64,000 nucleotides of DNA, from the sequence record OP557969.1. One strand, written 5' to 3'. The first letter of the stretch is position 1. Every line of letters starts with the position of its first letter. The translations under genes were made by a program, and so were the position numbers. Shown here piece by piece: positions 3,084 through 32,421 of the stretch. A model generated the notes under the pieces. The model saw nothing but the letters and a program-made list of their open reading frames with translations. It made no database searches and was not told the DNA's origin. Origin of the DNA: Escherichia phage ph0011.

Positions 3084-4964
3084 ATGAAACCTATCCGAGT
3101 ACTATCTCTTTTTAATGGAATGAGTGTAGGATACATGGCATTAAAAGATGCTGGTATCCCTGTTGAAAAATATTATTCATCCGAAATTGACAAATTTGCT
3201 ATAGCTGAATCCCAAGCTAACTTCCCCGATATAATCCAATTGGGTGATGTAACTAAGTGGAGAGAATGGGATATTGAATGGGACAAGATAGATCTACTGA
3301 TGGGTGGTTTTCCATGCTTCCCAGCAGGAACTATGATAATGACAAATAAAGGTCATAAAGATATAAAAGATATAAAAATTGGTGATATGGTTCTTACACA
3401 CACTGGACAGTACCAAAAAGTATTGAGTACTGGTGTTAAAAAGGCTCCCACTCGTATTATTACGGGTCAAGGTCACCTTCCAATTGAATGTACCGATAAT
3501 CATCCATTTTGGAGTAGGGAACGTCTAGCCAATAAATGGAATAATCAACGCCGAAGATATGATTCTGTGTTTTCTGAACCGCAATGGGTAAATGCTATAG
3601 ATCTTACTAAACAAAGTTATATTTGTAATGTTAAAAATATTACACATAATACTGTAAGTGATAAAGATGAAAAATATTGGTATTTTGTTGGTCGTTTTAT
3701 GGGTGATGGATGTGCTAGTGTATCTAATAACAAATACAGTATTACTATTGTAGATTCATTAGATAAAGTTGATGAATTGAAAAAATGCTTTGATGATTTT
3801 GGATACAAATACACATTAGCTATTAAAGATAATCATGTAAGATGTGATATATATAGCAAAAAGCTTTATGATGAATTAATATGTATTGGGCATAAATCAC
3901 AAAACAAATGTTTACCACCTGAAATATTCAATGAAACTATCAATAACAAAGAAGCATTTATTAAAGGATACATGGATGCAGATGGTTGTGAGGATAAACA
4001 CAATAAAAAATACAAATTTACCACCACAAGTTATAAAATAGTTCTTGGTATGCAACAGTTAATCTTAGATACTTATCAAAGTCATTGTACTATTAGCCAA
4101 ACTGTTCCAAAAACAAAAAAATATATAAAAAATAAGTTGGTTAATCAGCTTCCGTATTGGAATGTTCATTTTAGCTATAATAAAATTAAAAGAGATGATG
4201 TAATATATGATGAAATTTATATATGGAATCGTGGTGTAAAAAGTAATGTACCAACCGGAGAATGGAAAACCGTTTACAATATTGAAGTTGCAGTAGATAA
4301 CACATATACAGCGAACAATATTGTAGTTCATAACTGCCAAGCGTGGTCAGTTGCAGGTAAACAGGGTGGAATAAATGATCCTCGTGGTATGTTATTCCAT
4401 ACAATGGTTGATATTTACCAGCACATAAAAAGTCTCAATCCAGACTTGAAAGTACTGTTCGAGAATGTTAAAATGAAAGAAGATTTCAAGCAATACATTA
4501 ATAGTGTTCTTGAGATGACACCAGTACTGATAAATTCCCAGCATTATACGCCTCACTTCAGGCAGCGATATTACTGGTACAGTACTGATAAACTTTTTAT
4601 ACCACCTGCATTATCCAATGCACCTAAACTTCAAGATATTATTGAAGATGGTTGGTACACTGACAGAACCGCTTCGTACTGTATAGATGCTAACTATTTT
4701 AAGGGTGGTGATTGTAACCAGTACTTTAATAAATCAAGAAGACAAATTGTTTTCAAAGAACCTGATATCGATAGGGATTTCCTTCTTGAACATGGTAAGC
4801 GAAATGTGGACTATCGTCATTTAACAGTACAAGAGTGTTGCATGTTGCAAGGAATTGATGTAAACTACTTCAAAGTTAGTAGTTCAACACAAGCATACAA
4901 AATGCTTGGGAATGGATGGACTATGCCAGTTATATCACACTTACTACGAGATATATTCTTTTGA
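3084..4964 (+). CDS. DNA C5-cytosine methyltransferase, intein-containing precursor
   Basis: 626-aa ORF. Exteins carry C5-MTase motifs: LSLFNGMSVGYMAL (motif I-like), GGFP|CQAWSVAGK (motif IV Pro-Cys split by the insert), DPRGMLF, VLFENV (motif VI), LTVQECCMLQGI, MLGNGWTMPV. Spliced product predicted ~286 aa. Confidence 0.85.
   Translation: MKPIRVLSLFNGMSVGYMALKDAGIPVEKYYSSEIDKFAIAESQANFPDIIQLGDVTKWREWDIEWDKIDLLMGGFPCFPAGTMIMTNKGHKDIKDIKIGDMVLTHTGQYQKVLSTGVKKAPTRIITGQGHLPIECTDNHPFWSRERLANKWNNQRRRYDSVFSEPQWVNAIDLTKQSYICNVKNITHNTVSDKDEKYWYFVGRFMGDGCASVSNNKYSITIVDSLDKVDELKKCFDDFGYKYTLAIKDNHVRCDIYSKKLYDELICIGHKSQNKCLPPEIFNETINNKEAFIKGYMDADGCEDKHNKKYKFTTTSYKIVLGMQQLILDTYQSHCTISQTVPKTKKYIKNKLVNQLPYWNVHFSYNKIKRDDVIYDEIYIWNRGVKSNVPTGEWKTVYNIEVAVDNTYTANNIVVHNCQAWSVAGKQGGINDPRGMLFHTMVDIYQHIKSLNPDLKVLFENVKMKEDFKQYINSVLEMTPVLINSQHYTPHFRQRYYWYSTDKLFIPPALSNAPKLQDIIEDGWYTDRTASYCIDANYFKGGDCNQYFNKSRRQIVFKEPDIDRDFLLEHGKRNVDYRHLTVQECCMLQGIDVNYFKVSSSTQAYKMLGNGWTMPVISHLLRDIFF
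3315..4334 (+). mobile_element. intein with LAGLIDADG homing endonuclease domain inside the C5-MTase gene
   Basis: Starts Cys (CFPAGTMIMT, block A), block B TDNHPF, two LAGLIDADG motifs (FVGRFMGDGC, FIKGYMDADGCE), ends IVVHN followed by +1 Cys of CQAWS; in frame, 340 aa. Confidence 0.8.
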
Positions 4965-4966
4965 AC

Positions 4967-5446
4967 ATGAACAACTACCCCACTTATACAGAACGTGCAA
5001 TGGAATTTAAACGTCAGTTAGCCAAGGATGAATTAGAATTTAATTTGTATTATCCTAATATTGGTGATGAGGTATTGTATAGTTCTCATGCTAAGAATGG
5101 AACTTTACTTCATTCCGGTAAAGGTATTGTTGTGGATATGATTAGTACGTTTAAAGGAAAACTTAATGTAATGTACAAAGTACAAGATTCAAGTACTAAG
5201 TGTATTCATGAAGTGATGCATAATATACCTACATACCCAAAAGATTTTGTTGAGCTAATATCTCGAAGGGAGAAACCTATGTTCTATTGTGGTTACGACA
5301 AATTAACCAAACAAATTATTCCTAATACTATGGGAAAATTTAAAAGTGATGTAAAATCTGAACTTAATAAGAAATTAGGTTCTTCATGGGAAACTGAAAA
5401 CGAGTTTATCGAAATTCGTTTAATTGAAGTTACTATTCTTGATTAA
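4967..5446 (+). CDS. hypothetical protein
   Basis: ORF; start set at first ATG after MTase stop (MNNYPTYTERAMEF). Confidence 0.45.
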   Translation: MNNYPTYTERAMEFKRQLAKDELEFNLYYPNIGDEVLYSSHAKNGTLLHSGKGIVVDMISTFKGKLNVMYKVQDSSTKCIHEVMHNIPTYPKDFVELISRREKPMFYCGYDKLTKQIIPNTMGKFKSDVKSELNKKLGSSWETENEFIEIRLIEVTILD

Positions 5447-5489: not shown

Positions 5490-6005
5490 ATGACAGTTCC
5501 GTATGTTAAAATTATTAACAATATCCTTGATTTATGGGAAGATGTTATTACCGGTAAAAAGAATCCAATACCAGTACACGTACTAACTGGAAGACTACAA
5601 TTCAGAATGTCTAACAAAACTGAAACGTTTAATAATCATGATATTTGTATTACATTAAAAACACCTGTTAGTATTGTAATTAAAAAAAATAAAGATGATG
5701 AATTGTCATTATCTATTGGTCGTGATAAAATTATTTTAAGTAATTTGTCTGAAGAAGAATTCTTTCAAAGAAGTACTATCATCGACATGAAAGATTTCAC
5801 ATATGAATCATTAGTAGAACTCAATACACGTTTTGATGATATTCAGGAACGATTGCGACCAATACTCCGTAGAGAAGAAGAAGCCTGGATTGAAAGTATG
5901 AAGAAGATGCAAGAAATGTTAAAAGAAAATATTAACAATCTTGGTAAAACAACAATGGAAATTGGTAAAACTTTAAAACTCAACTTTTCAAAGGATCGTA
6001 AATGA
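5490..6005 (+). CDS. EExFFQxST motif family protein
   Basis: start moved to MTVPYVKII after terminator; motif EEEFFQRSTIIDM. Confidence 0.5.
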   Translation: MTVPYVKIINNILDLWEDVITGKKNPIPVHVLTGRLQFRMSNKTETFNNHDICITLKTPVSIVIKKNKDDELSLSIGRDKIILSNLSEEEFFQRSTIIDMKDFTYESLVELNTRFDDIQERLRPILRREEEAWIESMKKMQEMLKENINNLGKTTMEIGKTLKLNFSKDRK

Positions 6006-6454
6006 AAATCGATGAACTGATTTATATTTTAGGTAACTTGCACAAAATATTGTTACATCGCAACGAGATGAATAAACTAGGGTATAATATAACTAATTTA
6101 AATGAAACATCATTTAAATATAACTCAATCACTGGTGGAAATTATAATATTGTGTATTGTCATGAAACTGACCCTGACTGCTATCAACTTACGTTATACT
6201 TTTATCCAACAAACCCTACCATTGTTCAAGACATATCATCAATATCACTTGACCCAGATGGTGAAATGAGTATAGAATATAGCTATGATTCTAAAAAAGA
6301 ATGTTACGTTGAAGATATGAAAAATATGTTTAACGATGCATATGTGTTCCAGCTAAGTACTGTACATGATGTTGGAAGTACTAATGGGCAATTTTGGAAT
6401 ACATGCTATTATCATATGATTGGAATTTGTAAATTACTAAAAGGCGATGATTAA
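6002..6454 (+). CDS. EExFFQxST motif family protein (divergent)
   Basis: ORF 150 aa; motif DAYVFQLSTVHDVG. Confidence 0.5.
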   Translation: MKIDELIYILGNLHKILLHRNEMNKLGYNITNLNETSFKYNSITGGNYNIVYCHETDPDCYQLTLYFYPTNPTIVQDISSISLDPDGEMSIEYSYDSKKECYVEDMKNMFNDAYVFQLSTVHDVGSTNGQFWNTCYYHMIGICKLLKGDD

Positions 6455-6837
6455 TGAAATACAGCATTGAAGTACATTACACTACTGGTGATACTGAAAA
6501 TCAATATAACATAGTTAAGACCATTGATGTTCAATGGGATACTAAAGAGGAAGCAGTTGCTGCTTTACAGTGTCTAAAAGAGCATTGGGTGTTTTATATG
6601 AAGCAAGATAATTGCCATACAAAAGAACGCGAAACTATCGTTAAAAATGCTAAACAAAAAGAGTGGTTTGACCCAATTTCACCAGAATATTCATTTTTGG
6701 TTAAAGTTGGTGGCGTGACAGTACCCTTACGAACACCGTGGAACGGCTACTTTGAAACTCTTCATAATGCACGAGTTGTCGCTGTTGACAATCCTGAACA
6801 AATCGATTTTGATTCATTGGACTGGAAAAAATTATGA
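6454..6837 (+). CDS. hypothetical protein
   Basis: ORF 127 aa, ATGA-coupled. Confidence 0.45.
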   Translation: MKYSIEVHYTTGDTENQYNIVKTIDVQWDTKEEAVAALQCLKEHWVFYMKQDNCHTKERETIVKNAKQKEWFDPISPEYSFLVKVGGVTVPLRTPWNGYFETLHNARVVAVDNPEQIDFDSLDWKKL

Positions 6838-7277: not shown

Positions 7278-7279
7278 CT

Positions 7280-7423
7280 ATGCCAGTACGTAACAGTACT
7301 TCACGCTTTACGCTTCAACAGAAAGCAGATCTTTTGAATATGGCAAACAAAGATTCTAATTATTACTATCTAGTACTCGGTGGTTCAGTTGAAAAGATTG
7401 ACCTACGTGCGTGTATGAAATAA
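7280..7423 (+). CDS. small hypothetical protein
   Basis: 47-aa ORF read from sequence (MPVRNSTSRF...). Confidence 0.3.
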   Translation: MPVRNSTSRFTLQQKADLLNMANKDSNYYYLVLGGSVEKIDLRACMK

Positions 7424-7436
7424 CAAAGGGGATAAA

Positions 7437-7607
7437 ATGAGCTTACGTGAATCATGGGAACAATTTAAAGAAGAGATTGGTTATCGTGGTGTTAAGATTG
7501 AACAAATCAATCGTACTGAAAGCATCAAAGCTAGTACTAATGGAACTACCTATGATCGTTATGATGAAAAGTATGGTTTACATTCTAAACCAAAGGATAC
7601 TGAATAA
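7437..7607 (+). CDS. small hypothetical protein
   Basis: 56-aa ORF (MSLRESWEQFKEE...), GGGG upstream. Confidence 0.3.
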   Translation: MSLRESWEQFKEEIGYRGVKIEQINRTESIKASTNGTTYDRYDEKYGLHSKPKDTE

Positions 7608-7750
7608 TGGTGTATACTAACATTTTTACTGGTATTATGCGTAAGTTTGTTAATGGTATTGGATATGTATCCAATGACAACGGTAGTACATGGGTAAAAA
7701 ATAATACGTCCGAATCTTTAGTGAAAAGTCTTCCGTATTATAAAGCTTGA
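7607..7750 (+). CDS. small hypothetical protein
   Basis: 47-aa ORF (MVYTNIFTGIM...). Confidence 0.3.
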   Translation: MVYTNIFTGIMRKFVNGIGYVSNDNGSTWVKNNTSESLVKSLPYYKA

Positions 7751-7775
7751 CACATGAAAATGGAGTATGTATAAT
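7746..7775 (+). promoter_or_regulatory. sigma70-type early promoter
   Basis: TTGACA (7746-7751), 18-nt spacer, TATAAT (7770-7775). Confidence 0.55.
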
Positions 7776-7810
7776 ACTCCAATATTAATCAAATGAGGAT
7801 ATGCGAAATG

Positions 7811-15389: not shown

Positions 15390-15506
<117 letters not shown>

Positions 15507-15511
15507 AAAAG

Positions 15512-15585
15512 ACGGGGTATAGCACAATTGGATAGTGCAAGAGAATTCTAATCTCTAGGTTGGGGGTTCAAGTCCCTCTACCTCG
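15512..15585 (+). tRNA. tRNA-Arg (anticodon TCT)
   Basis: acceptor CGGGGTA/TACCTCG (one G-U), D stem GCAC/GTGC, anticodon stem AGAGA/TCTCT loop ATTCTAA, T arm GGGGG-TTCAAGT-CCCTC. Confidence 0.7.
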
Positions 15586-15610
15586 GCCTACTTTAATTAA
15601 AGGTTAAACC

Positions 15611-15775
15611 ATGACGCATGAAGAATGGATGAATGACATTAATTTTAGATATGCAGGTATCGGTAACTGGAGAAAGTATCATTGGGAAATCATATCAGAC
15701 CCAGCAGAATACGATAAACTTATGAATCATGAAGTGTATCCGTGGTTCTTTATTGAAATAATGGTACGATTATGA
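15611..15775 (+). CDS. MTHxEW small-protein family member
   Basis: MTHEEWMNDINFRYAGIGNWRKYHWEI...; ATGA overlap. Confidence 0.45.
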   Translation: MTHEEWMNDINFRYAGIGNWRKYHWEIISDPAEYDKLMNHEVYPWFFIEIMVRL

Positions 15776-15932
15776 CACATGAAGAATGGATGAATGACAT
15801 TAATTTTAGATATTCGGGTATCGGTAAATGGCTAAAGTATCATTGGGAATTCATTTCAGAGCCACATCTGTATGATAAACTTATCAACGATTCTGCATAT
15901 AAAATGTACTTAATTGAACTACTGGTACGAAT

Positions 15933-15936
<4 letters not shown>
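15772..15936 (+). CDS. MTHxEW small-protein family member
   Basis: MTHEEWMNDINFRYSGIGKWLKYHWEF... Confidence 0.45.
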
Positions 15937-16105
<169 letters not shown>

Positions 16106-16108
16106 AAG

Positions 16109-16553
<445 letters not shown>

Positions 16554-16581
16554 GTATCTTAATAACAGAAGGTATATTGAA

Positions 16582-16821
16582 ATGAGTAAGTATTTTGTGA
16601 GTTATAGTTATAATGTATCACGAAAGATTCCACGTGGTGACGGAATGGGATGGTCTTATGATGCATATACTTTAAATGAGTCATGTATCATCGAATTAAA
16701 AGAAAAAGACCTTGACATTTTAAAAATCAAACAATATATTCTTGATGTTGAATTGGCACATCGTACTGATATCTATCCAGATGTAAATAACATCAGCATC
16801 TTAGTACTAACCAAAGTATAA
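16582..16821 (+). CDS. hypothetical protein
   Basis: start MSKYFVSY after AAGG. Confidence 0.45.
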   Translation: MSKYFVSYSYNVSRKIPRGDGMGWSYDAYTLNESCIIELKEKDLDILKIKQYILDVELAHRTDIYPDVNNISILVLTKV

Positions 16822-16827
16822 GATAAA

Positions 16828-16861
<34 letters not shown>

Positions 16862-17215
16862 GAATTCCACAATCAGACGTATATGGTGTAAGTTACGTCG
16901 ATGCAATCCAGAACAAGATCTCTGGTACTCTAGGAAGTGGTTAATGTTAACCTAGACGGGTTTGATAATTGGACGATAGGCAATTATTACTTGACTAGCA
17001 GGTTTAAACTAGAGGTGACTATCCTTCACCAAACTGGAAAACCGGATGGACTTTTATTTAAAAGGGTAAGGCGTGGAAATATGTTTACAGTAGTTGCTTT
17101 TAGTAGCCTGTACGCCCCACGTCAAGGTAGCCGAAAGGCAAGTTAAAACGGGTGGTTATAAAGCTGAATTAACAGCGGCGTTTAAAAGCGTCACCATCCA
17201 TTTTTTTTAATTAAA
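16862..17215 (+). ncRNA. candidate structured stable RNA(s), unclassified
   Basis: ~350 nt directly downstream of an early promoter, ending in a T-run, with no RBS-associated ORF and locally higher GC; sits in the tRNA cluster. Confidence 0.35.
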
Positions 17216-17224
17216 GTTGGTGAT

Positions 17225-17863
<639 letters not shown>

Positions 17864-17882
17864 CTTTTTAATTTAAAAGTAC

Positions 17883-17910
17883 TTTACTGTAGTGTTTAGT
17901 ACCGTATAAT
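17883..17910 (+). promoter_or_regulatory. candidate early promoter
   Basis: TTTACT-N16-TATAAT. Confidence 0.45.
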
Positions 17911-17936
17911 GTAAACAAAAGGATAAAATAAAACTC

Positions 17937-18461
<525 letters not shown>

Positions 18462-18483
18462 TTAAAAAATCAGTACTTTATTA

Positions 18484-18697
<214 letters not shown>

Positions 18698-18720
18698 TCA
18701 TTGCACTCTTCTCTTGTAAT

Positions 18721-18868
<148 letters not shown>

Positions 18869-18889
18869 TTCACATGATATAGGGTACAC

Positions 18890-19147
<258 letters not shown>

Positions 19148-19163
19148 ATAAAAAGAACGAAAA

Positions 19164-19205
<42 letters not shown>

Positions 19206-19215
19206 GATTCCCGAT

Positions 19216-19342
<127 letters not shown>

Positions 19343-19361
19343 AGAGGTACTTCGAGTATGC

Positions 19362-19417
<56 letters not shown>

Positions 19418-19436
19418 AACTACTTTTTAATTGACG

Positions 19437-19487
<51 letters not shown>

Positions 19488-19504
19488 TACAACCGACAAT
19501 GACT

Positions 19505-19571
<67 letters not shown>

Positions 19572-19746
19572 GAAGAAACTGCTAAACAGCTTGAAGAACT
19601 TTGTAGTGCTGCACCGATGCCGACTCTTGGCTTAATCAAGTTGATGCGTCGAAATAAGAAAAATTTAAAATAATACAGTAAGATGGCCTCCCCTCCATAT
19701 CATGAGAGTATAGAGACTTGTTGGTTATCTTACTTTTAAACAAACT

Positions 19747-19820
19747 GCCTCAATAGCAAAATTGGTAATGCACACGTTTTGTAAGCGTGAGATTTTTCCG
19801 TTCGAGTCGGAATTGGGGCA
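19747..19820 (+). tRNA. candidate tRNA-Thr (anticodon TGT)
   Basis: acceptor GCCTCAA/TTGGGGC (one U-G), anticodon stem CACGT/GCGTG loop TTTGTAA, T arm TTCCG-TTCGAGT-CGGAA; 6-nt variable loop is atypical. Confidence 0.5.
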
Positions 19821-19837
19821 CAAAATAAAGGCACACT

Positions 19838-20813: not shown

Positions 20814-21097
20814 TGGAATTTATTGTTGCACCTGATGAACTAAAAACATTCACGTTCCGAGACAATAACAATTATCCTTATACAAATCATTCATTGAATT
20901 CATTACATGTTATTTCAATCATTGCATCTGAATACAGAGACAATCCATGTATTGATTTTAAAACCACTGATGGTGAATATACATGGGTGATCCCAAAAGA
21001 TAAATATAGTTATCAAGGGGCAGTAGAAATTCGCGACTCGATTCTACAGCAAATTGAAGATGGACATACTCATCCTAAACTAAACATTCAGTACTGA
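20813..21097 (+). CDS. hypothetical protein
   Basis: ORF 94 aa. Confidence 0.45.
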   Translation: MEFIVAPDELKTFTFRDNNNYPYTNHSLNSLHVISIIASEYRDNPCIDFKTTDGEYTWVIPKDKYSYQGAVEIRDSILQQIEDGHTHPKLNIQY

Positions 21098-29548: not shown

Positions 29549-30514
29549 GTGAAAAAACTTGATTTGAATACAATTGCAGATGAAGTTCTGGATGAATGCT
29601 TTGGTAATGAAGAAGTGAATACGCTGGATGCGTTAGAACCAGTTCAAGAAAAAGATAACATTGACGAGAAAAATAATGGTAATTTCAAGTTTAATATTAG
29701 TCTTAAGCGACCAGCAAATGTAACAAATGAAGATATTATTCGTGATATTCAAGCAGGTATTAACGTAAAGAAAAATACTGAACTATTAGTTCGTTATAAT
29801 TACGGCTTGATTATTGATGTTGCAAGTAAATGCACGTGTTATATTCCATTTGAAGATAAGATTTCATATGGTATCGAGGGATTCATGCGAGCATTAAAAA
29901 CATTTGACCTTAGTAAGAATGTAAAGTTCGCTACGTATGCATCGTCAAGTATCTATATGACTGTATACAATGAAAGTTCAGATGCTAATCATCTGGTCCA
30001 TTTCCCTCGTTACATGAGTGTTAATAAGATACAAGTGAAACGCTTCTGTCATAATTATGAGCGTCAGCATGGTTGCCGTCCTACACCAGAAATTATTTCT
30101 GAAGAGACTGGTATTGAAATCCAGCACGTTAAGAATTGTTTATTATTCCAAAGTGAATATACTTCACTGGATGCACCATTGGATGGTGTTTCTGATGGGA
30201 CGATGAGTGATATTCTGCATTCATCTGAAGGTGATTATAATCTTAATGTTGACAGTATTCGTGCACCGTTGCGTTATACCATCAACGAACTAACTAATGA
30301 GTTGAGTGCTAAGGAATGTGAGATTATTCAACGTGTTCATGGGTTAGGTGAATTTAATCCTGAAACACTACGTGAAATTGCTGATAGTGGTTTTATCGAT
30401 GACAACGGTAAGTGTGTAAAATCCAGATCTTCGGTTCATCGTAAATACAGTGATGCTCTTAAGAAACTCAAGAAATTAGTGCTTGCTAAAGGGTACGAAT
30501 ACGAAGATTTCTAA
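29549..30514 (+). CDS. sigma-70 family RNA polymerase sigma factor
   Basis: GTG start after AGGAG; region 2-like LVRYNYGLIIDVASK, GIEGFMRALKTFD...KFATYA; region 4-like C-terminal TLREIADSG...KYSDALKKLKKL. Confidence 0.7.
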   Translation: MKKLDLNTIADEVLDECFGNEEVNTLDALEPVQEKDNIDEKNNGNFKFNISLKRPANVTNEDIIRDIQAGINVKKNTELLVRYNYGLIIDVASKCTCYIPFEDKISYGIEGFMRALKTFDLSKNVKFATYASSSIYMTVYNESSDANHLVHFPRYMSVNKIQVKRFCHNYERQHGCRPTPEIISEETGIEIQHVKNCLLFQSEYTSLDAPLDGVSDGTMSDILHSSEGDYNLNVDSIRAPLRYTINELTNELSAKECEIIQRVHGLGEFNPETLREIADSGFIDDNGKCVKSRSSVHRKYSDALKKLKKLVLAKGYEYEDF

Positions 30515-30520
30515 ATTGTA

Positions 30521-30547
30521 AAGGTTGGCATATGCCAACCTTTTTTA
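30521..30547 (+). terminator. rho-independent terminator
   Basis: AAGGTTGGCATATGCCAACCTTTTTT. Confidence 0.65.
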
Positions 30548-31194
30548 TTGGGACAAAGCATAAATATATGATATAATAATTATGTACAATCCTGTTGAAT
30601 GCAGAAATGCATATAAATTAGAACCTGATCCTATCGAAAACGTAGATGGCAGATGAGCAGTTCAGCAGTGCGATGAGCAGAAGAAACCCGTCAGAAGTGG
30701 GCATAGTTTGAACCCCTCACGGCAATGCGGCTCAATAAAGAACTCCGATAAGCATACAGAGAGTTCCTAGATAGACATATAAGGAATCACACCTTACCAG
30801 ATTTGCTAAGGGAGTCTTGAAATAAGACAGCTTGAACTTTGATTGTATAGAGTTTCAAGTGAGTGCTGGGATGAAAAGACCAGTGACCGTTGCATATGAC
30901 CGTGATAGGGAGAAACAGAGCAACCCGCTTCCGTTTGTGATTGATCATTTTTACAATATAGATCCGTCCAAAATTCACGATACAATAATATCCGATGCCA
31001 TCAGCGTCAAGAAGAGACTTAATTGTCTCTTTTTTATTACTTTCATTCCCCTGTGGGGGATGAAATAGTCCTCAACAAATCCCGTCAAGTATTAAAAGTC
31101 CTAGACAGTTATGAAACATTCGCGTATAATACGTAGTATTAGAAGCGAACAGACATCTCGAAGAGATGGATGATTAACTATTAAGGAATATCCA
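30548..31194 (+). other. GC-elevated noncoding island, candidate large structured RNA or decayed foreign gene
   Basis: ~650 bp without a credible ORF; composition clearly less AT-rich than flanks; internal hairpin TTCATTCCCCTGTGGGGGATGAA. Confidence 0.3.
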
Positions 31195-31404
31195 ATGAAT
31201 TCAATCATATTTTTAGTAGTAGCTTTTTCTGTTAATTCCGGTGTACAAATAACCCCAATGAATTCCATGAATCAATGTATAGCAGTTCGTGATAGTACAT
31301 ACGAACAAGTAAACAAAAATATTAGAATGACAGTTAGTAAAGAACAAATGTGGTGTTACAATAGTAATACTAACGCAAAGCTTATTGTAGGACAAACTCA
31401 ATGA
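31195..31404 (+). CDS. small secreted/membrane hypothetical protein
   Basis: 69 aa, hydrophobic N-terminus. Confidence 0.4.
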   Translation: MNSIIFLVVAFSVNSGVQITPMNSMNQCIAVRDSTYEQVNKNIRMTVSKEQMWCYNSNTNAKLIVGQTQ

Positions 31405-31632: not shown

Positions 31633-32421
31633 ATGTGCACTATAGATGAATTAATTAGACGGAATTCAAAATACTACAAACCATCAGAAATTGTAGGCAA
31701 CATTACTAAATCAGAGTTCGGACCAAATACACGAAAACTCATTCATGTAATGTTACGTGATGGCTTTAAATGTGATTGTTGTGGTGAATCCAATGTGGTA
31801 TTCACTTTACATAAGCACAGTACTAAAGAACGTTATAAATTCAGACCTTATGTACTTAAAGGGAAACGCCTTGTACGCATGACGTTAGACCATAATGTAC
31901 TGGACTGTCTTCAGGGTGGTAATGACAAAGAAAACATGACTGCACTGTGTGAGGATTGCAATGCATTACGCCAGCATAAATTTGCTGAGTACAGTGAGTT
32001 TAAGTTCTGGTATCATAACGCAGATCGTTCCATTGAACCTGACGTTAACTACTGCTTTATTGAGTACATTAAGAATGCAAAAGATACATACATTCTTAAA
32101 TCAATGTCACCTATTACAGTGTTTCCTGAGAATCTATTCACTACATTAAAGAATAGTTTTATGGTAGGTGATATTGATGCATTCAAGTATTTTGACAAAG
32201 GTGCAAAACATTTTGAAGTTCAATGTCTTAGTACTGCACTATGTGAACTTATTAAAATTTACATAAAAGATTATTTGGGTATTGACAATGTACGCGTACC
32301 AGAGTATACTTTTTCTATTGATTTCGATTGTGAATCAATCAAAGAGTTTGGGATTCTTTTCAATAAACAAATAGAACTTGCAATTCAAAACGAAATCAAG
32401 TACTATAATACTAACATTTAA
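31633..32421 (+). CDS. HNH endonuclease domain protein
   Basis: CDCCGES...HKH...LDHNVLDCLQGGNDKENMTALCEDCNALRQH. Confidence 0.6.
   Translation: MCTIDELIRRNSKYYKPSEIVGNITKSEFGPNTRKLIHVMLRDGFKCDCCGESNVVFTLHKHSTKERYKFRPYVLKGKRLVRMTLDHNVLDCLQGGNDKENMTALCEDCNALRQHKFAEYSEFKFWYHNADRSIEPDVNYCFIEYIKNAKDTYILKSMSPITVFPENLFTTLKNSFMVGDIDAFKYFDKGAKHFEVQCLSTALCELIKIYIKDYLGIDNVRVPEYTFSIDFDCESIKEFGILFNKQIELAIQNEIKYYNTNI

Follow-up and report, generated by a model that had tools for sequence, protein, structure and literature searches.

Lytic phages are known to make abundant large noncoding RNAs (ncRNAs) of unknown role, among them those of ICP1 (PMC7567579), of PA5oct (PMC7318152) and of the GOLLD and ROOL families (PMC12286853). 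A passage of the ICP1 report that cites Harris & Breaker has GOLLD accumulating in lytic growth (PMC7567579), GOLLD and ROOL form large RNA-only assemblies (PMC12286853), and RNA sequencing of PA5oct revealed ncRNA001-004, sigma-70-promoted transcripts of 236-619 nucleotides (nt) devoid of open reading frames (ORFs), whose function is unknown (PMC7318152). We analysed a gap between two genes at positions 30548-31194 of a 64,000-nt stretch of Escherichia phage ph0011 (sequence record OP557969.1; this whole stretch is hereafter called the window). Comparative sequence evidence indicates that it is the gene for a large structured RNA, one paralogue of an ancient multicopy family of jumbo phages that is also present on unrelated integrative islands. 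Like GOLLD and ROOL, the RNA is several hundred nt long, has many helices and pseudoknots, and is encoded by a free-standing phage gene; unlike them, it does not lie beside tRNAs, gives no match to their Rfam models even at E<=10, occurs as 3-5 diverged paralogues per genome in enterobacterial jumbo phages, and is found on integrative islands too. The family is absent from Rfam 15 and from the literature searched; the class to which it would belong, that of large ornate phage ncRNAs, is already known.

By blastn against GenBank phages, the window belongs to the Asteriusvirus (121Q/PBECO4) group. The gap follows a sigma-factor gene (ORF 29549-30514, with Pfam Sigma70 regions 2, 3 and 4), and the first-pass annotation, made from the sequence of the window, had described a terminator behind that gene, the lack of any plausible ORF in the gap and an elevated GC content, all of which were borne out. 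The hairpin and T-run of the upstream terminator were recovered by a terminator scan (Table 1). The longest ORF before the ATG at 31195, which is preceded by a ribosome-binding site, has 78 amino acids (aa; 30832-31068), and stops or frameshifts break its frame in every homologue, even the closest (L002 and L021); copies at 88-92% identity keep no frame and differ by indels that are not multiples of three, and the three longest ORFs of the gap have no Pfam match. GC content is 0.391 for 30548-31194 (98.9th percentile among equal-length windows) and 0.413 for the core at 30586-31035 (99.6th percentile; mean of the window 0.332, standard deviation 0.03).

Further members were sought with a 19-base pattern taken from the most conserved block of the element, for which about 4 chance matches are expected in 596 Gb. 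It retrieved 32 IMG/VR, 46 metagenome and 5 genome loci, with one copy per retrieved locus by nhmmer, and the family was studied on 47 distinct full-length copies falling into about 11 sequence clusters. The model of the fold, fixed in window coordinates as 22 helices with 114 pairs, was counted on the MAFFT alignment of these 47 sequences. Standard pairs fill 85.0% of the cells, a share that drops to 41-45% on sliding the 3' partners by 1-3 columns; changes on both sides are seen in 77 pairs (749 cells, against 111-224 in the slid controls); and the covariation score of 0.391 compares with 0.074-0.111 in the slid controls and was reached by 0 of 500 shuffles. As the sequences are related and the model was derived from the same data, the slid controls are the fairer yardstick. 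An unbiased scan for stacked complementary covarying columns found the same helices as the model, namely the local hairpins and four long-range pairings. Low pairing (39-64%) is limited to the hairpins P1a, P4 (inner part), P6 and P7, because MAFFT misaligns hairpins of variable length. G-U cells number 382 and A-C cells 197, and one G-U pair, in P10b, is invariant; this excess, the invariant pair and the orientation of promoter and terminator point to the plus strand as the functional RNA strand. Against shuffled sequences, the folding energy has a z-score of -3.0 for the plus strand and -2.0 for the minus strand. A large structured phage-associated ncRNA, one of the possibilities raised in the first pass, is thus strongly supported by the conserved promoter and terminator, the extensive covariation and the four pseudoknots. 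As far as sequence can tell, the element bears the generic marks of a structured ncRNA gene, which are compensatory changes on one strand and transcription signals of its own.

The gap is an autonomous promoter-to-terminator unit of about 450 nt. Its promoter is of the sigma-70 type with an extended -10 element (TGaTATAAT), from which transcription would start at about 30584-30586; across the 47 homologues, the TGnTATAAT motif and the -35 G vary little or not at all. The intrinsic terminator behind the RNA body is likely to be the main 3' end. It occurs in 31 of the 47 homologues, where 93% of its cells are paired and 5 of its 6 pairs covary, and is lacking on the 3' side of two paralogue types. 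In clusters 1 and 10 (L009, L012, L020, L023, L024, L035 and L059) a terminator-like hairpin with a U-run stands between promoter and body, as if the terminator module had been shifted from the 3' to the 5' side. The promoter-like site that bounds the element downstream would serve the co-directional small genes beginning at 31195.

Table 1. Coordinates of the features of the RNA gene and of its boundaries in the window
Feature	Positions	Strand	Evidence
Intrinsic terminator behind the sigma-70-family gene; bounds the element on its 5' side	30520-30547	+	terminator scan
Promoter: -35-like TTGGGA/GGGACA (30548-55), TG (30569-70), -10 TATAAT (30572-77)	30548-30577	+	promoter scan
Putative structured RNA body, ~425 nt: 5' domain (PK1-P6) and 3' domain (P7-PK3 and tail)	30586-31008	+	nhmmer, alignments, covariation
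PK1: 30592-99 (CUGUUGAA) with 30661-68 (UUCAGCAG)	30592-30668	+	L-INS-i scan
P2: hairpin CUG...CUAUC / GAUGG...CAG, conserved 9-nt loop GAAAAYGUA	30625-30652	+	covariation
Stem S: GCA:UGC; its loop is the PK1 3' strand, giving a pseudoknot	30657-30671	+	covariation
P3: UGAGC:GCUCA, encloses P4	30674-30734	+	covariation
P4: CCGU:ACGG, variable inner hairpin	30688-30722	+	covariation
PK2: AUG (30725-27) with CAU (30776-78), crosses P3	30725-30778	+	covariation
P5: hairpin GAACUC:GAGUUC	30740-30766	+	covariation
P6 hairpin (30780-96), invariant junction CUAAGGGAG (30805-13), variable P7 hairpin (30814-28)	30780-30828	+	alignments
P8: hairpin; loop AUUGUAU (30842-48) is the PK3 5' strand	30831-30859	+	covariation
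PK3: P8 loop 30842-48 with 30980-86 (AUACAAU), 7-bp long-range pseudoknot	30842-30986	+	covariation
P9: hairpin	30864-30885	+	covariation
Core pseudoknot: PK4, GUUGC (30889-93):GCAAC (30920-24), within the P10b loop	30889-30932	+	covariation
P10b: GGGAG (30908-12) with CUUCC (30928-32)		+	covariation
P10: CGUGA:UCACG, encloses P10b and P11	30901-30979	+	covariation
Box 1: AUCAGCGUCAAG, in the 3' tail	31000-31011	+	repeat comparison
Intrinsic terminator: AAGAAGAGAC-loop-GUCUCUUUUU and U run	31009-31034	+	terminator scan
Hairpin H: UUCAUUCCCC-UGU-GGGGGAUGAA, G run invariant	31042-31064	+	covariation
Box 2: AAUCCCGUCAAG, direct repeat of box 1, followed by -10-like TATTAA	31077-31088	+	repeat comparison
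Downstream promoter-like site, TAGACA-17-TATAAT; 3' boundary of the element	31102-31130	+	scan, 11/12 matches

Throughout the alignments, the helices that lie between invariant blocks change in sequence and keep their pairing. In the 5' domain, PK1 joins the 5' end to the loop of stem S and encloses the hairpins P1a (30600-11) and P2. It comprises five stacked covarying columns in the L-INS-i scan (the strands of GAP32 are CUGAUUGA:UCAAUCAG) and is paired in 68.5% of cells of the MAFFT alignment, a low value due to a register problem of 1 nt. P2 is paired in 86% of cells with covarying inner pairs (AU 20, CG 15, GC 6), and stem S in 100%, its middle pair being UA in 19 sequences, CG in 16 and AU in 12. 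The figures are 99.6% for P3 (3 of 5 pairs covary), 99.5% for the outer stem of P4, 98.6% for PK2 (one pair is GC in 31 and AU in 15) and 97.5% for P5, in which all 6 pairs covary with up to four pair types. The inner part of P4 has two alternative forms among the paralogues, either GGGCAUAGUUUGAACCC or a longer version. A stretch that had been quoted in the first pass as containing helices, AGCAGTTCAG, proved to cover the 3' strand of PK1 together with S, P3 and P4.

The 3' domain contains PK3, which is paired in 99.1% of cells with 6 of 7 pairs covarying, each paralogue having its own matched strands; in P8, whose loop supplies one of these strands, 9 of 10 pairs covary. P9 is paired in 90% of cells (5 of 6 pairs covary) and P10 in 99.6% (4 of 5). 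The core pseudoknot is the most conserved block of the family: PK4 is paired in 100% of cells with all 5 pairs covarying, and P10b likewise in 100%, the invariant G-U included, with an invariant loop AAACMGA...CCG. P11 (30934-72; 90% of cells paired) bears an optional module of ~35 nt, GAUUGAUC...UACAAUAUAGAUCCGUC (30939-68), for which P7 is the other site of insertion. Depending on the paralogue, this module is found at P7, at P11, at both (as in the E. coli island copy and the 174-kb copies of BF and Yen9-04) or at neither, and it looks like a transposable motif that might make a tertiary contact or bind a protein. The single-stranded blocks that are invariant are UCGAAAAYGUAGA, CAGAUGAG, GAAACCCGU, CACGGCAAUGCGGC, GAUAGACAUAUAAGG, CUAAGGGAG, GACCGUUGC and GAUAGRGAGAAACMGAGCAACCCGCUUYCG.

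Past the terminator lies hairpin H, which is the other helix quoted in the first pass (TTCATTCCCCTGTGGGGGATGAA), and which is kept in all members, those of the islands and of a divergent subfamily included. It is paired in 88% of cells and shows many U-G/C-G alternations; as these are tolerated on the plus strand only, we read it as plus-strand RNA or plus-strand single-stranded DNA. The terminator and hairpin H are flanked by two short direct repeats, boxes 1 and 2, the consensus past hairpin H being the box CAAAUCYCGUCAR; box 1 sits in a small local hairpin whose register varies among homologues. The hexamer of box 1 is the same as that of box 2 in 47 of 47 members despite the existence of four variants: CGTCAG (28 members), CGTCAA (17), CTTCAA (RaK2) and CGACAA (one Serratia island, whose 93%-identical sister has CGTCAA). 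A fifth variant, ACGAAG, occupies both boxes in the divergent metagenomic subfamily. The twin boxes evolve in concert. No internal guide complementary to them was found, even with G-U pairs allowed. Some functions of the boxes could be discarded. As a general phage promoter, with a -35/-10 arrangement like that of extracytoplasmic function (ECF) sigma factors included, box 2 would have to recur, and its motif is found once in the 64-kb window; a three-way switch, in which a 5' arm pairs with either box 1 or box 2, is contradicted by the close relatives L002 and L001, where the arm pairs with a part of box 1 that is absent from box 2; and a conserved antisense promoter at box 1 was rejected, since the minus-strand site at 31010-30982 has its -10 on the variable strand of PK3 and is hence not conserved.

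Comparison with related phages, which the first-pass annotation had proposed as a check, places the element throughout the RaK2/121Q/GAP32/CBB/BF clade of jumbo phages, with 3-5 copies per genome at orthologous positions. By blastn, 72 GenBank phage records match the core (30545-31100), almost always in regions that are unannotated or carry tiny 'hypothetical' ORFs. There are 4 copies per genome in Asteriusvirus, 5 in Munch/7t3, GAP32, CBB, fHe-Yen9-04, BF, XbC2 and the Erwinia SNUABM phages, and 3 weaker matches in RaK2 and K64-1. Within one genome the copies are all co-oriented; the four of 121Q, all of them confirmed, map near 90, 193, 247 and 327 kb, and the 64-kb window holds no other copy by blastn, nhmmer or covariance model. 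The 247-kb copy of 121Q and the RaK2 copy share their neighbours (Rz-like spanin, HNH endonuclease, the RNA, starvation-inducible regulator), and so do the 311-kb copy of UE-S1 and that of Munch (endonuclease VII, the RNA, convergent baseplate-region genes). The copies are ancient paralogues that occupy orthologous positions. The copy in the window is chimeric (30545-31180 compared with L001 and L002 of UE-S1): its flanks and first ~200 nt equal the syntenic post-sigma copy of UE-S1, and the UE-S1 311-kb type is represented in its middle and its 3' part (92% vs 75% identity), which implies gene conversion between dispersed copies.

Several loci at the margin of the family deserve mention. The copy of TH47, from a record marked UNVERIFIED, lacks the promoter and the 5' hairpin. 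A divergent subfamily on metagenome contigs of the European Nucleotide Archive (L061, L064, L078, L080 and L083) keeps the 3' domain, hairpin H and the twin boxes and has a different 5' domain; these contigs resemble uncharacterised large phages, with a Thg1-like tRNA-His guanylyltransferase nearby. Matches to the 19-base pattern in Devosia (L041, 4484-4587), in a Saccharibacteria metagenome-assembled genome (MAG; L044, 1353-1453) and on two metagenome contigs (L053 and L069) show AUAG-GAGAAAC...CCGCUUYCG with P10-like flanking pairing, and no Rfam family corresponds to them. With covariance-model scores of 15-30 bits they were set aside as chance and are probably just that; they may, alternatively, represent a minimal and more widespread version of the core pseudoknot.

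Three of the five matches in bacterial genomes are true members. In Serratia fonticola GTA-SR07 (L043) the RNA lies in a 1.3-kb AT-rich gap by a large serine recombinase and two ParB/RepB-like genes, on an island that adjoins rof and tilS; in Serratia sp. 2723 a serine recombinase immediately precedes it; and in an Enterobacteriaceae MAG it is located between thiM/thiD and a CI-like repressor. Two complete tandem rof genes, encoding the Rho inhibitor, are seen beside the GTA-SR07 island (4775-5038 and 5227-5490 of L043), one of which may be island cargo. In E. coli, 2 of 5,426 complete genomes have one copy each; EEC_W5 and LR-29-1 are strains that bear the island. That of strain EEC_W5 (L091, NZ_CM130020.1, 241.2-251.5 kb) belongs to a ~10.5-kb island between ffs and ybaA that contains a tyrosine integrase disrupted by an IS3 element, unknown ORFs, an mSLOG-DUF4326/DUF488/DuOB set, a resolvase and a DUF2188 gene. 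This copy is complete, with promoter, body, terminator, hairpin H and box 2, and is closest (79%) to one paralogue of the Serratia/Yersinia phages BF and fHe-Yen9-04. About 500 base pairs (bp) past the EEC_W5 RNA are three iteron-like TTATCGATCG repeats with GATC sites (locus positions 20980-21030). The islands combine an integrase or serine recombinase with defence-like cargo, have no structural genes within the stretch seen, and carry RNA copies that each have their own promoter. No copy was found in the plasmids of PLSDB. In Pseudomonas, islands of integrase and defence genes proved to be satellites of another jumbo phage, in a report that mentions no RNA shared between satellite and phage (PMC12595487).

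The RNA matched no Rfam family. Rfam 15 (4,227 models, including GOLLD, ROOL, HEARO, OLE, raiA, 6S, RNase P, transfer-messenger RNA (tmRNA) and riboswitches) yielded 7 tRNAs and no more for the whole window at gathering thresholds; at E<=10, the region 30400-31300 gave nothing beyond noise and look-alikes of terminators, and eight homologous loci gave no match within the element; the intron, GOLLD, ROOL and HEARO models that the first pass had put forward were thus all without a match. A tmRNA or tRNA-like nature was rejected, as ARAGORN finds 7 tRNAs at 15.4-19.8 kb only, and so was a group II intron, there being no RF00029 match in the window or the family loci and no reverse transcriptase ORF. 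By eye, the order of the helices also misfits hammerhead, HDV and group I ribozymes, for which no model matched. In size (350-450 nt), long-range pseudoknots, A-rich junctions and a variable periphery round a fixed core, the RNA is like RNase P RNA, tmRNA and group I introns; it differs from them in the order of its helices (compared by eye) and in giving no Rfam or ARAGORN match. The literature on RaK2, Asteriusvirus, UE-S1 and fEgEco12 does not describe it, nor does the text of a 2023 screen that reported 10,006 candidate viral RNAs (PMC10690425); it may be among the candidates that this text leaves unnamed.

PA5oct is a distant relative within the same phage supergroup, and its ncRNA004 ends with a C/G-run hairpin like H and a short box. 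Homology to the PA5oct ncRNAs is not supported, the nhmmer match (E=1.2) being confined to the H-like hairpin and a covariance model of the 3' core finding nothing in the three ncRNA loci; we take the resemblance of the 3' end as a lead, not as evidence. An unannotated paralogue of ncRNA004 is present in the long terminal repeat of PA5oct (L092, ~5860-6500, and L095, 1617-2235; both have TTGACA-type promoters), so that PA5oct has a multicopy large-ncRNA family of its own.

We favour the view, with a probability of roughly 0.55, that the element encodes an early, abundant RNA acting in trans as a compact folded particle, be it scaffold, decoy or ribozyme. Host sigma-70 RNA polymerase would start at the extended -10 promoter, and the RNA would be made from the first minutes of infection, as a host sigma-70 promoter implies. 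The ~425-nt body would fold into two domains locked by PK1-PK4; most transcripts would end at the terminator, and those that read through would add hairpin H and box 2. The RNA might then act in trans as a protein-binding scaffold or decoy, possibly as a ribozyme, with a partner that either is a component of Enterobacterales cells, infected and uninfected alike, or comes from the phage, and the A-rich junctions and loops and the twin CGUCAR boxes could be its contact or processing sites. Transcription, action in trans and the nature of the partner are all inferred. A trans-acting RNA is preferred because some copies have no co-directional gene, because selection acts on the fold, and because the islands keep the whole gene with its promoter. 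In particular, the genes that follow the 311-kb copy of UE-S1 and the copy of Munch are convergent, which leaves no cis target there and makes of the RNA an independent transcription unit.

Several observations weigh against this proposal. The terminator-like hairpin on the 5' side of paralogues that lack the 3' terminator fits a leader or attenuator better than a free-standing gene. Both ends of the RNA are placed by consensus signals alone, and a literature search found no transcriptome of a RaK2/121Q-type phage. Conservation extends past the terminator into hairpin H, box 2 and a CGAA-rich block, so that the functional unit may exceed the terminated RNA. No partner protein is common to phages and islands, the two ORFs flanking the island RNA having no jumbo-phage homologue, and the conserved loops have no antisense targets beyond chance in the 64-kb window. 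Finally, the sequences are related by descent, and the shuffle statistics therefore overstate their independence.

One alternative is an origin module, with the structured RNA as a primer or R-loop former like ColE1 RNA II or the T4 oriF/oriG transcripts, and with hairpin H and the boxes as a priming or helicase-loading site. Each phage would then have 3-5 origins, and the islands would borrow the replisome of a helper phage. T4 has multiple replication origins, and like these the copies here are dispersed, several and co-oriented per ~350-kb genome; small elements could borrow the RNA, and the small islands, which lack recognisable replication genes, do carry one copy. Like RNA II and the oriF/oriG transcripts, too, the RNA is folded, has a promoter to drive it, measures about 500 nt and carries a G-run element towards its 3' region, and a conserved G6/C4 run, direct-repeat boxes, CGAA-rich repeats downstream and the TTATCGATCG iterons of the E. 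coli island would all suit an origin, as would the fact that integrase-plus-defence islands can be jumbo-phage satellites (PMC12595487). Unlike in those systems, however, the terminator precedes the G-run hairpin, and in most copies it would release the RNA ahead of the priming site; no antisense promoter of the RNA I type is conserved, cumulative GC skew has no inflection at the locus, and the RNA-like strand is not strongly G-rich. The four covarying pseudoknots and invariant loops amount to far more conserved tertiary structure than known primer RNAs have or need, and we regard an origin as doubtful. Another alternative is a cis-acting leader, either a sensor of the riboswitch or T-box type or a put-like processive antiterminator, that would control, at the adjacent terminator, the passage of polymerase into the small early genes found behind most copies. 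The window, GAP32, Yen9-04, two 121Q copies and the E. coli island do show the succession of promoter, large structured leader, intrinsic terminator and co-directional small genes, and terminator-less paralogues continue straight towards the next gene; the HK022 put RNAs and riboswitch leaders likewise come right behind a strong early promoter and immediately ahead of an intrinsic terminator. The succession of hairpin H and CUCAACAA presumably recalls, if loosely, the boxB-boxA order of rrn operons. Such a role is at odds with the convergent genes behind some copies (UE-S1 at 311 kb and Munch), with the near-consensus promoter that the downstream genes of the window have for themselves, and with the terminator sequence, which varies freely and has no covarying alternative pairing with the body, such as an antiterminator. 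Size does not fit either: the RNA is 6-7 times larger than put RNAs and riboswitch leaders, and to our knowledge ~425 nt with four pseudoknots is far above any known riboswitch or put RNA. A leader function for the family is thus unlikely.

That the fold has no function, the element being a repeat at the DNA level such as a shuffled promoter/terminator cassette (PeSL-like) or the remnant of a mobile element, would agree with the recombination between paralogues that made the chimeric copy of the window, with the direct repeats flanking the terminator/H segment and with the annotation of UE-S1, in which part of the element is a 'repeat_region'. Compensatory changes in 77 pairs, those of long-range pseudoknots included, are unexpected for a DNA cassette; moreover, the loci are orthologous across genera and so not recently mobile, and terminal inverted repeats are lacking, which makes this explanation highly improbable. 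As for a decayed protein gene or an intron remnant tied to an HNH-like gene, both of which had been considered in the first pass, the composition is indeed atypical with respect to the flanks, an HNH-like ORF is situated 440 bp downstream, and the 247-kb copies of 121Q and RaK2 have an annotated HNH gene about 800 bp upstream of them. The absence of a conserved frame and of Pfam matches, already noted for the 78-aa frame and the longest ORFs, speaks against a pseudogenised foreign gene, and an intron remnant is opposed by the position of the element, which is intergenic in every genome inspected, between two complete genes and inside none, and gives no RF00028 or RF00029 signal at E<=10; decay of either kind is effectively refuted. 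The HNH gene reported downstream is not confirmed: the 262-aa ORF at 31633-32421 has no Pfam match at E<0.01, although by eye it shows CxxC...DH..N...CxxCN, and its UE-S1 orthologue is annotated as a 'hypothetical protein'. A separate promoter and two small ORFs intervene between it and the element, and most paralogous copies have other neighbours, so that the link looks incidental.

A bolder version of the trans-acting RNA can be entertained, tentatively, in which the RNA is a shared 'handle' of a system of jumbo phages and their satellites, the islands having captured a copy so as to be replicated or mobilised by RaK2-type jumbo phages, or else to sabotage these. The paralogues would be specialised forms of a catalytic or assembly-competent RNA, for example one that primes or organises replication or another early process, and the twin boxes, which evolve in concert, would be self-matching sites of processing or recombination.

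Elsewhere in the window, seven tRNA genes (15419-19821; Ser-TGA, Arg-TCT, Ser-GCT, Ser-ACT, Met, Asn and Thr) include a tRNA-Ser with an unusual ACT anticodon. Another gap, of 515 bp (7278-7792), has no ORF of at least 60 aa; it shares 98% identity with phage BF17, its counterparts in relatives are annotated with several tiny ORFs, and many T5-like phages have a segment that is ~80% identical to 69 nt of it (about 7521-7589).

Large, intricately folded RNAs of bacteria and phages that lack a known function are rare, and earlier ones (RNase P, group I and II introns, tmRNA, OLE, GOLLD and ROOL) each revealed new biochemistry or architecture. The family described here is tractable, with four well-supported pseudoknots and 3-5 anciently diverged copies per genome, and it has been passed over in more than 70 GenBank genomes, where the corresponding gaps of ~0.6-0.9 kb are at present either empty or occupied by spurious small ORFs. 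The phages that carry it, with genomes of ~350 kb, form a clade infecting E. coli, Salmonella, Klebsiella, Serratia, Yersinia, Erwinia and Cronobacter, and the tractable hosts include K-12 (phage Sharanji). The island copies offer a testable lead on the interplay of satellites and defence islands with jumbo phages, a field opened in 2025. Were the RNA indeed a handle shared by phages and islands, it would represent a new functional RNA class and the first cis/trans determinant of satellite parasitism on jumbo phages.

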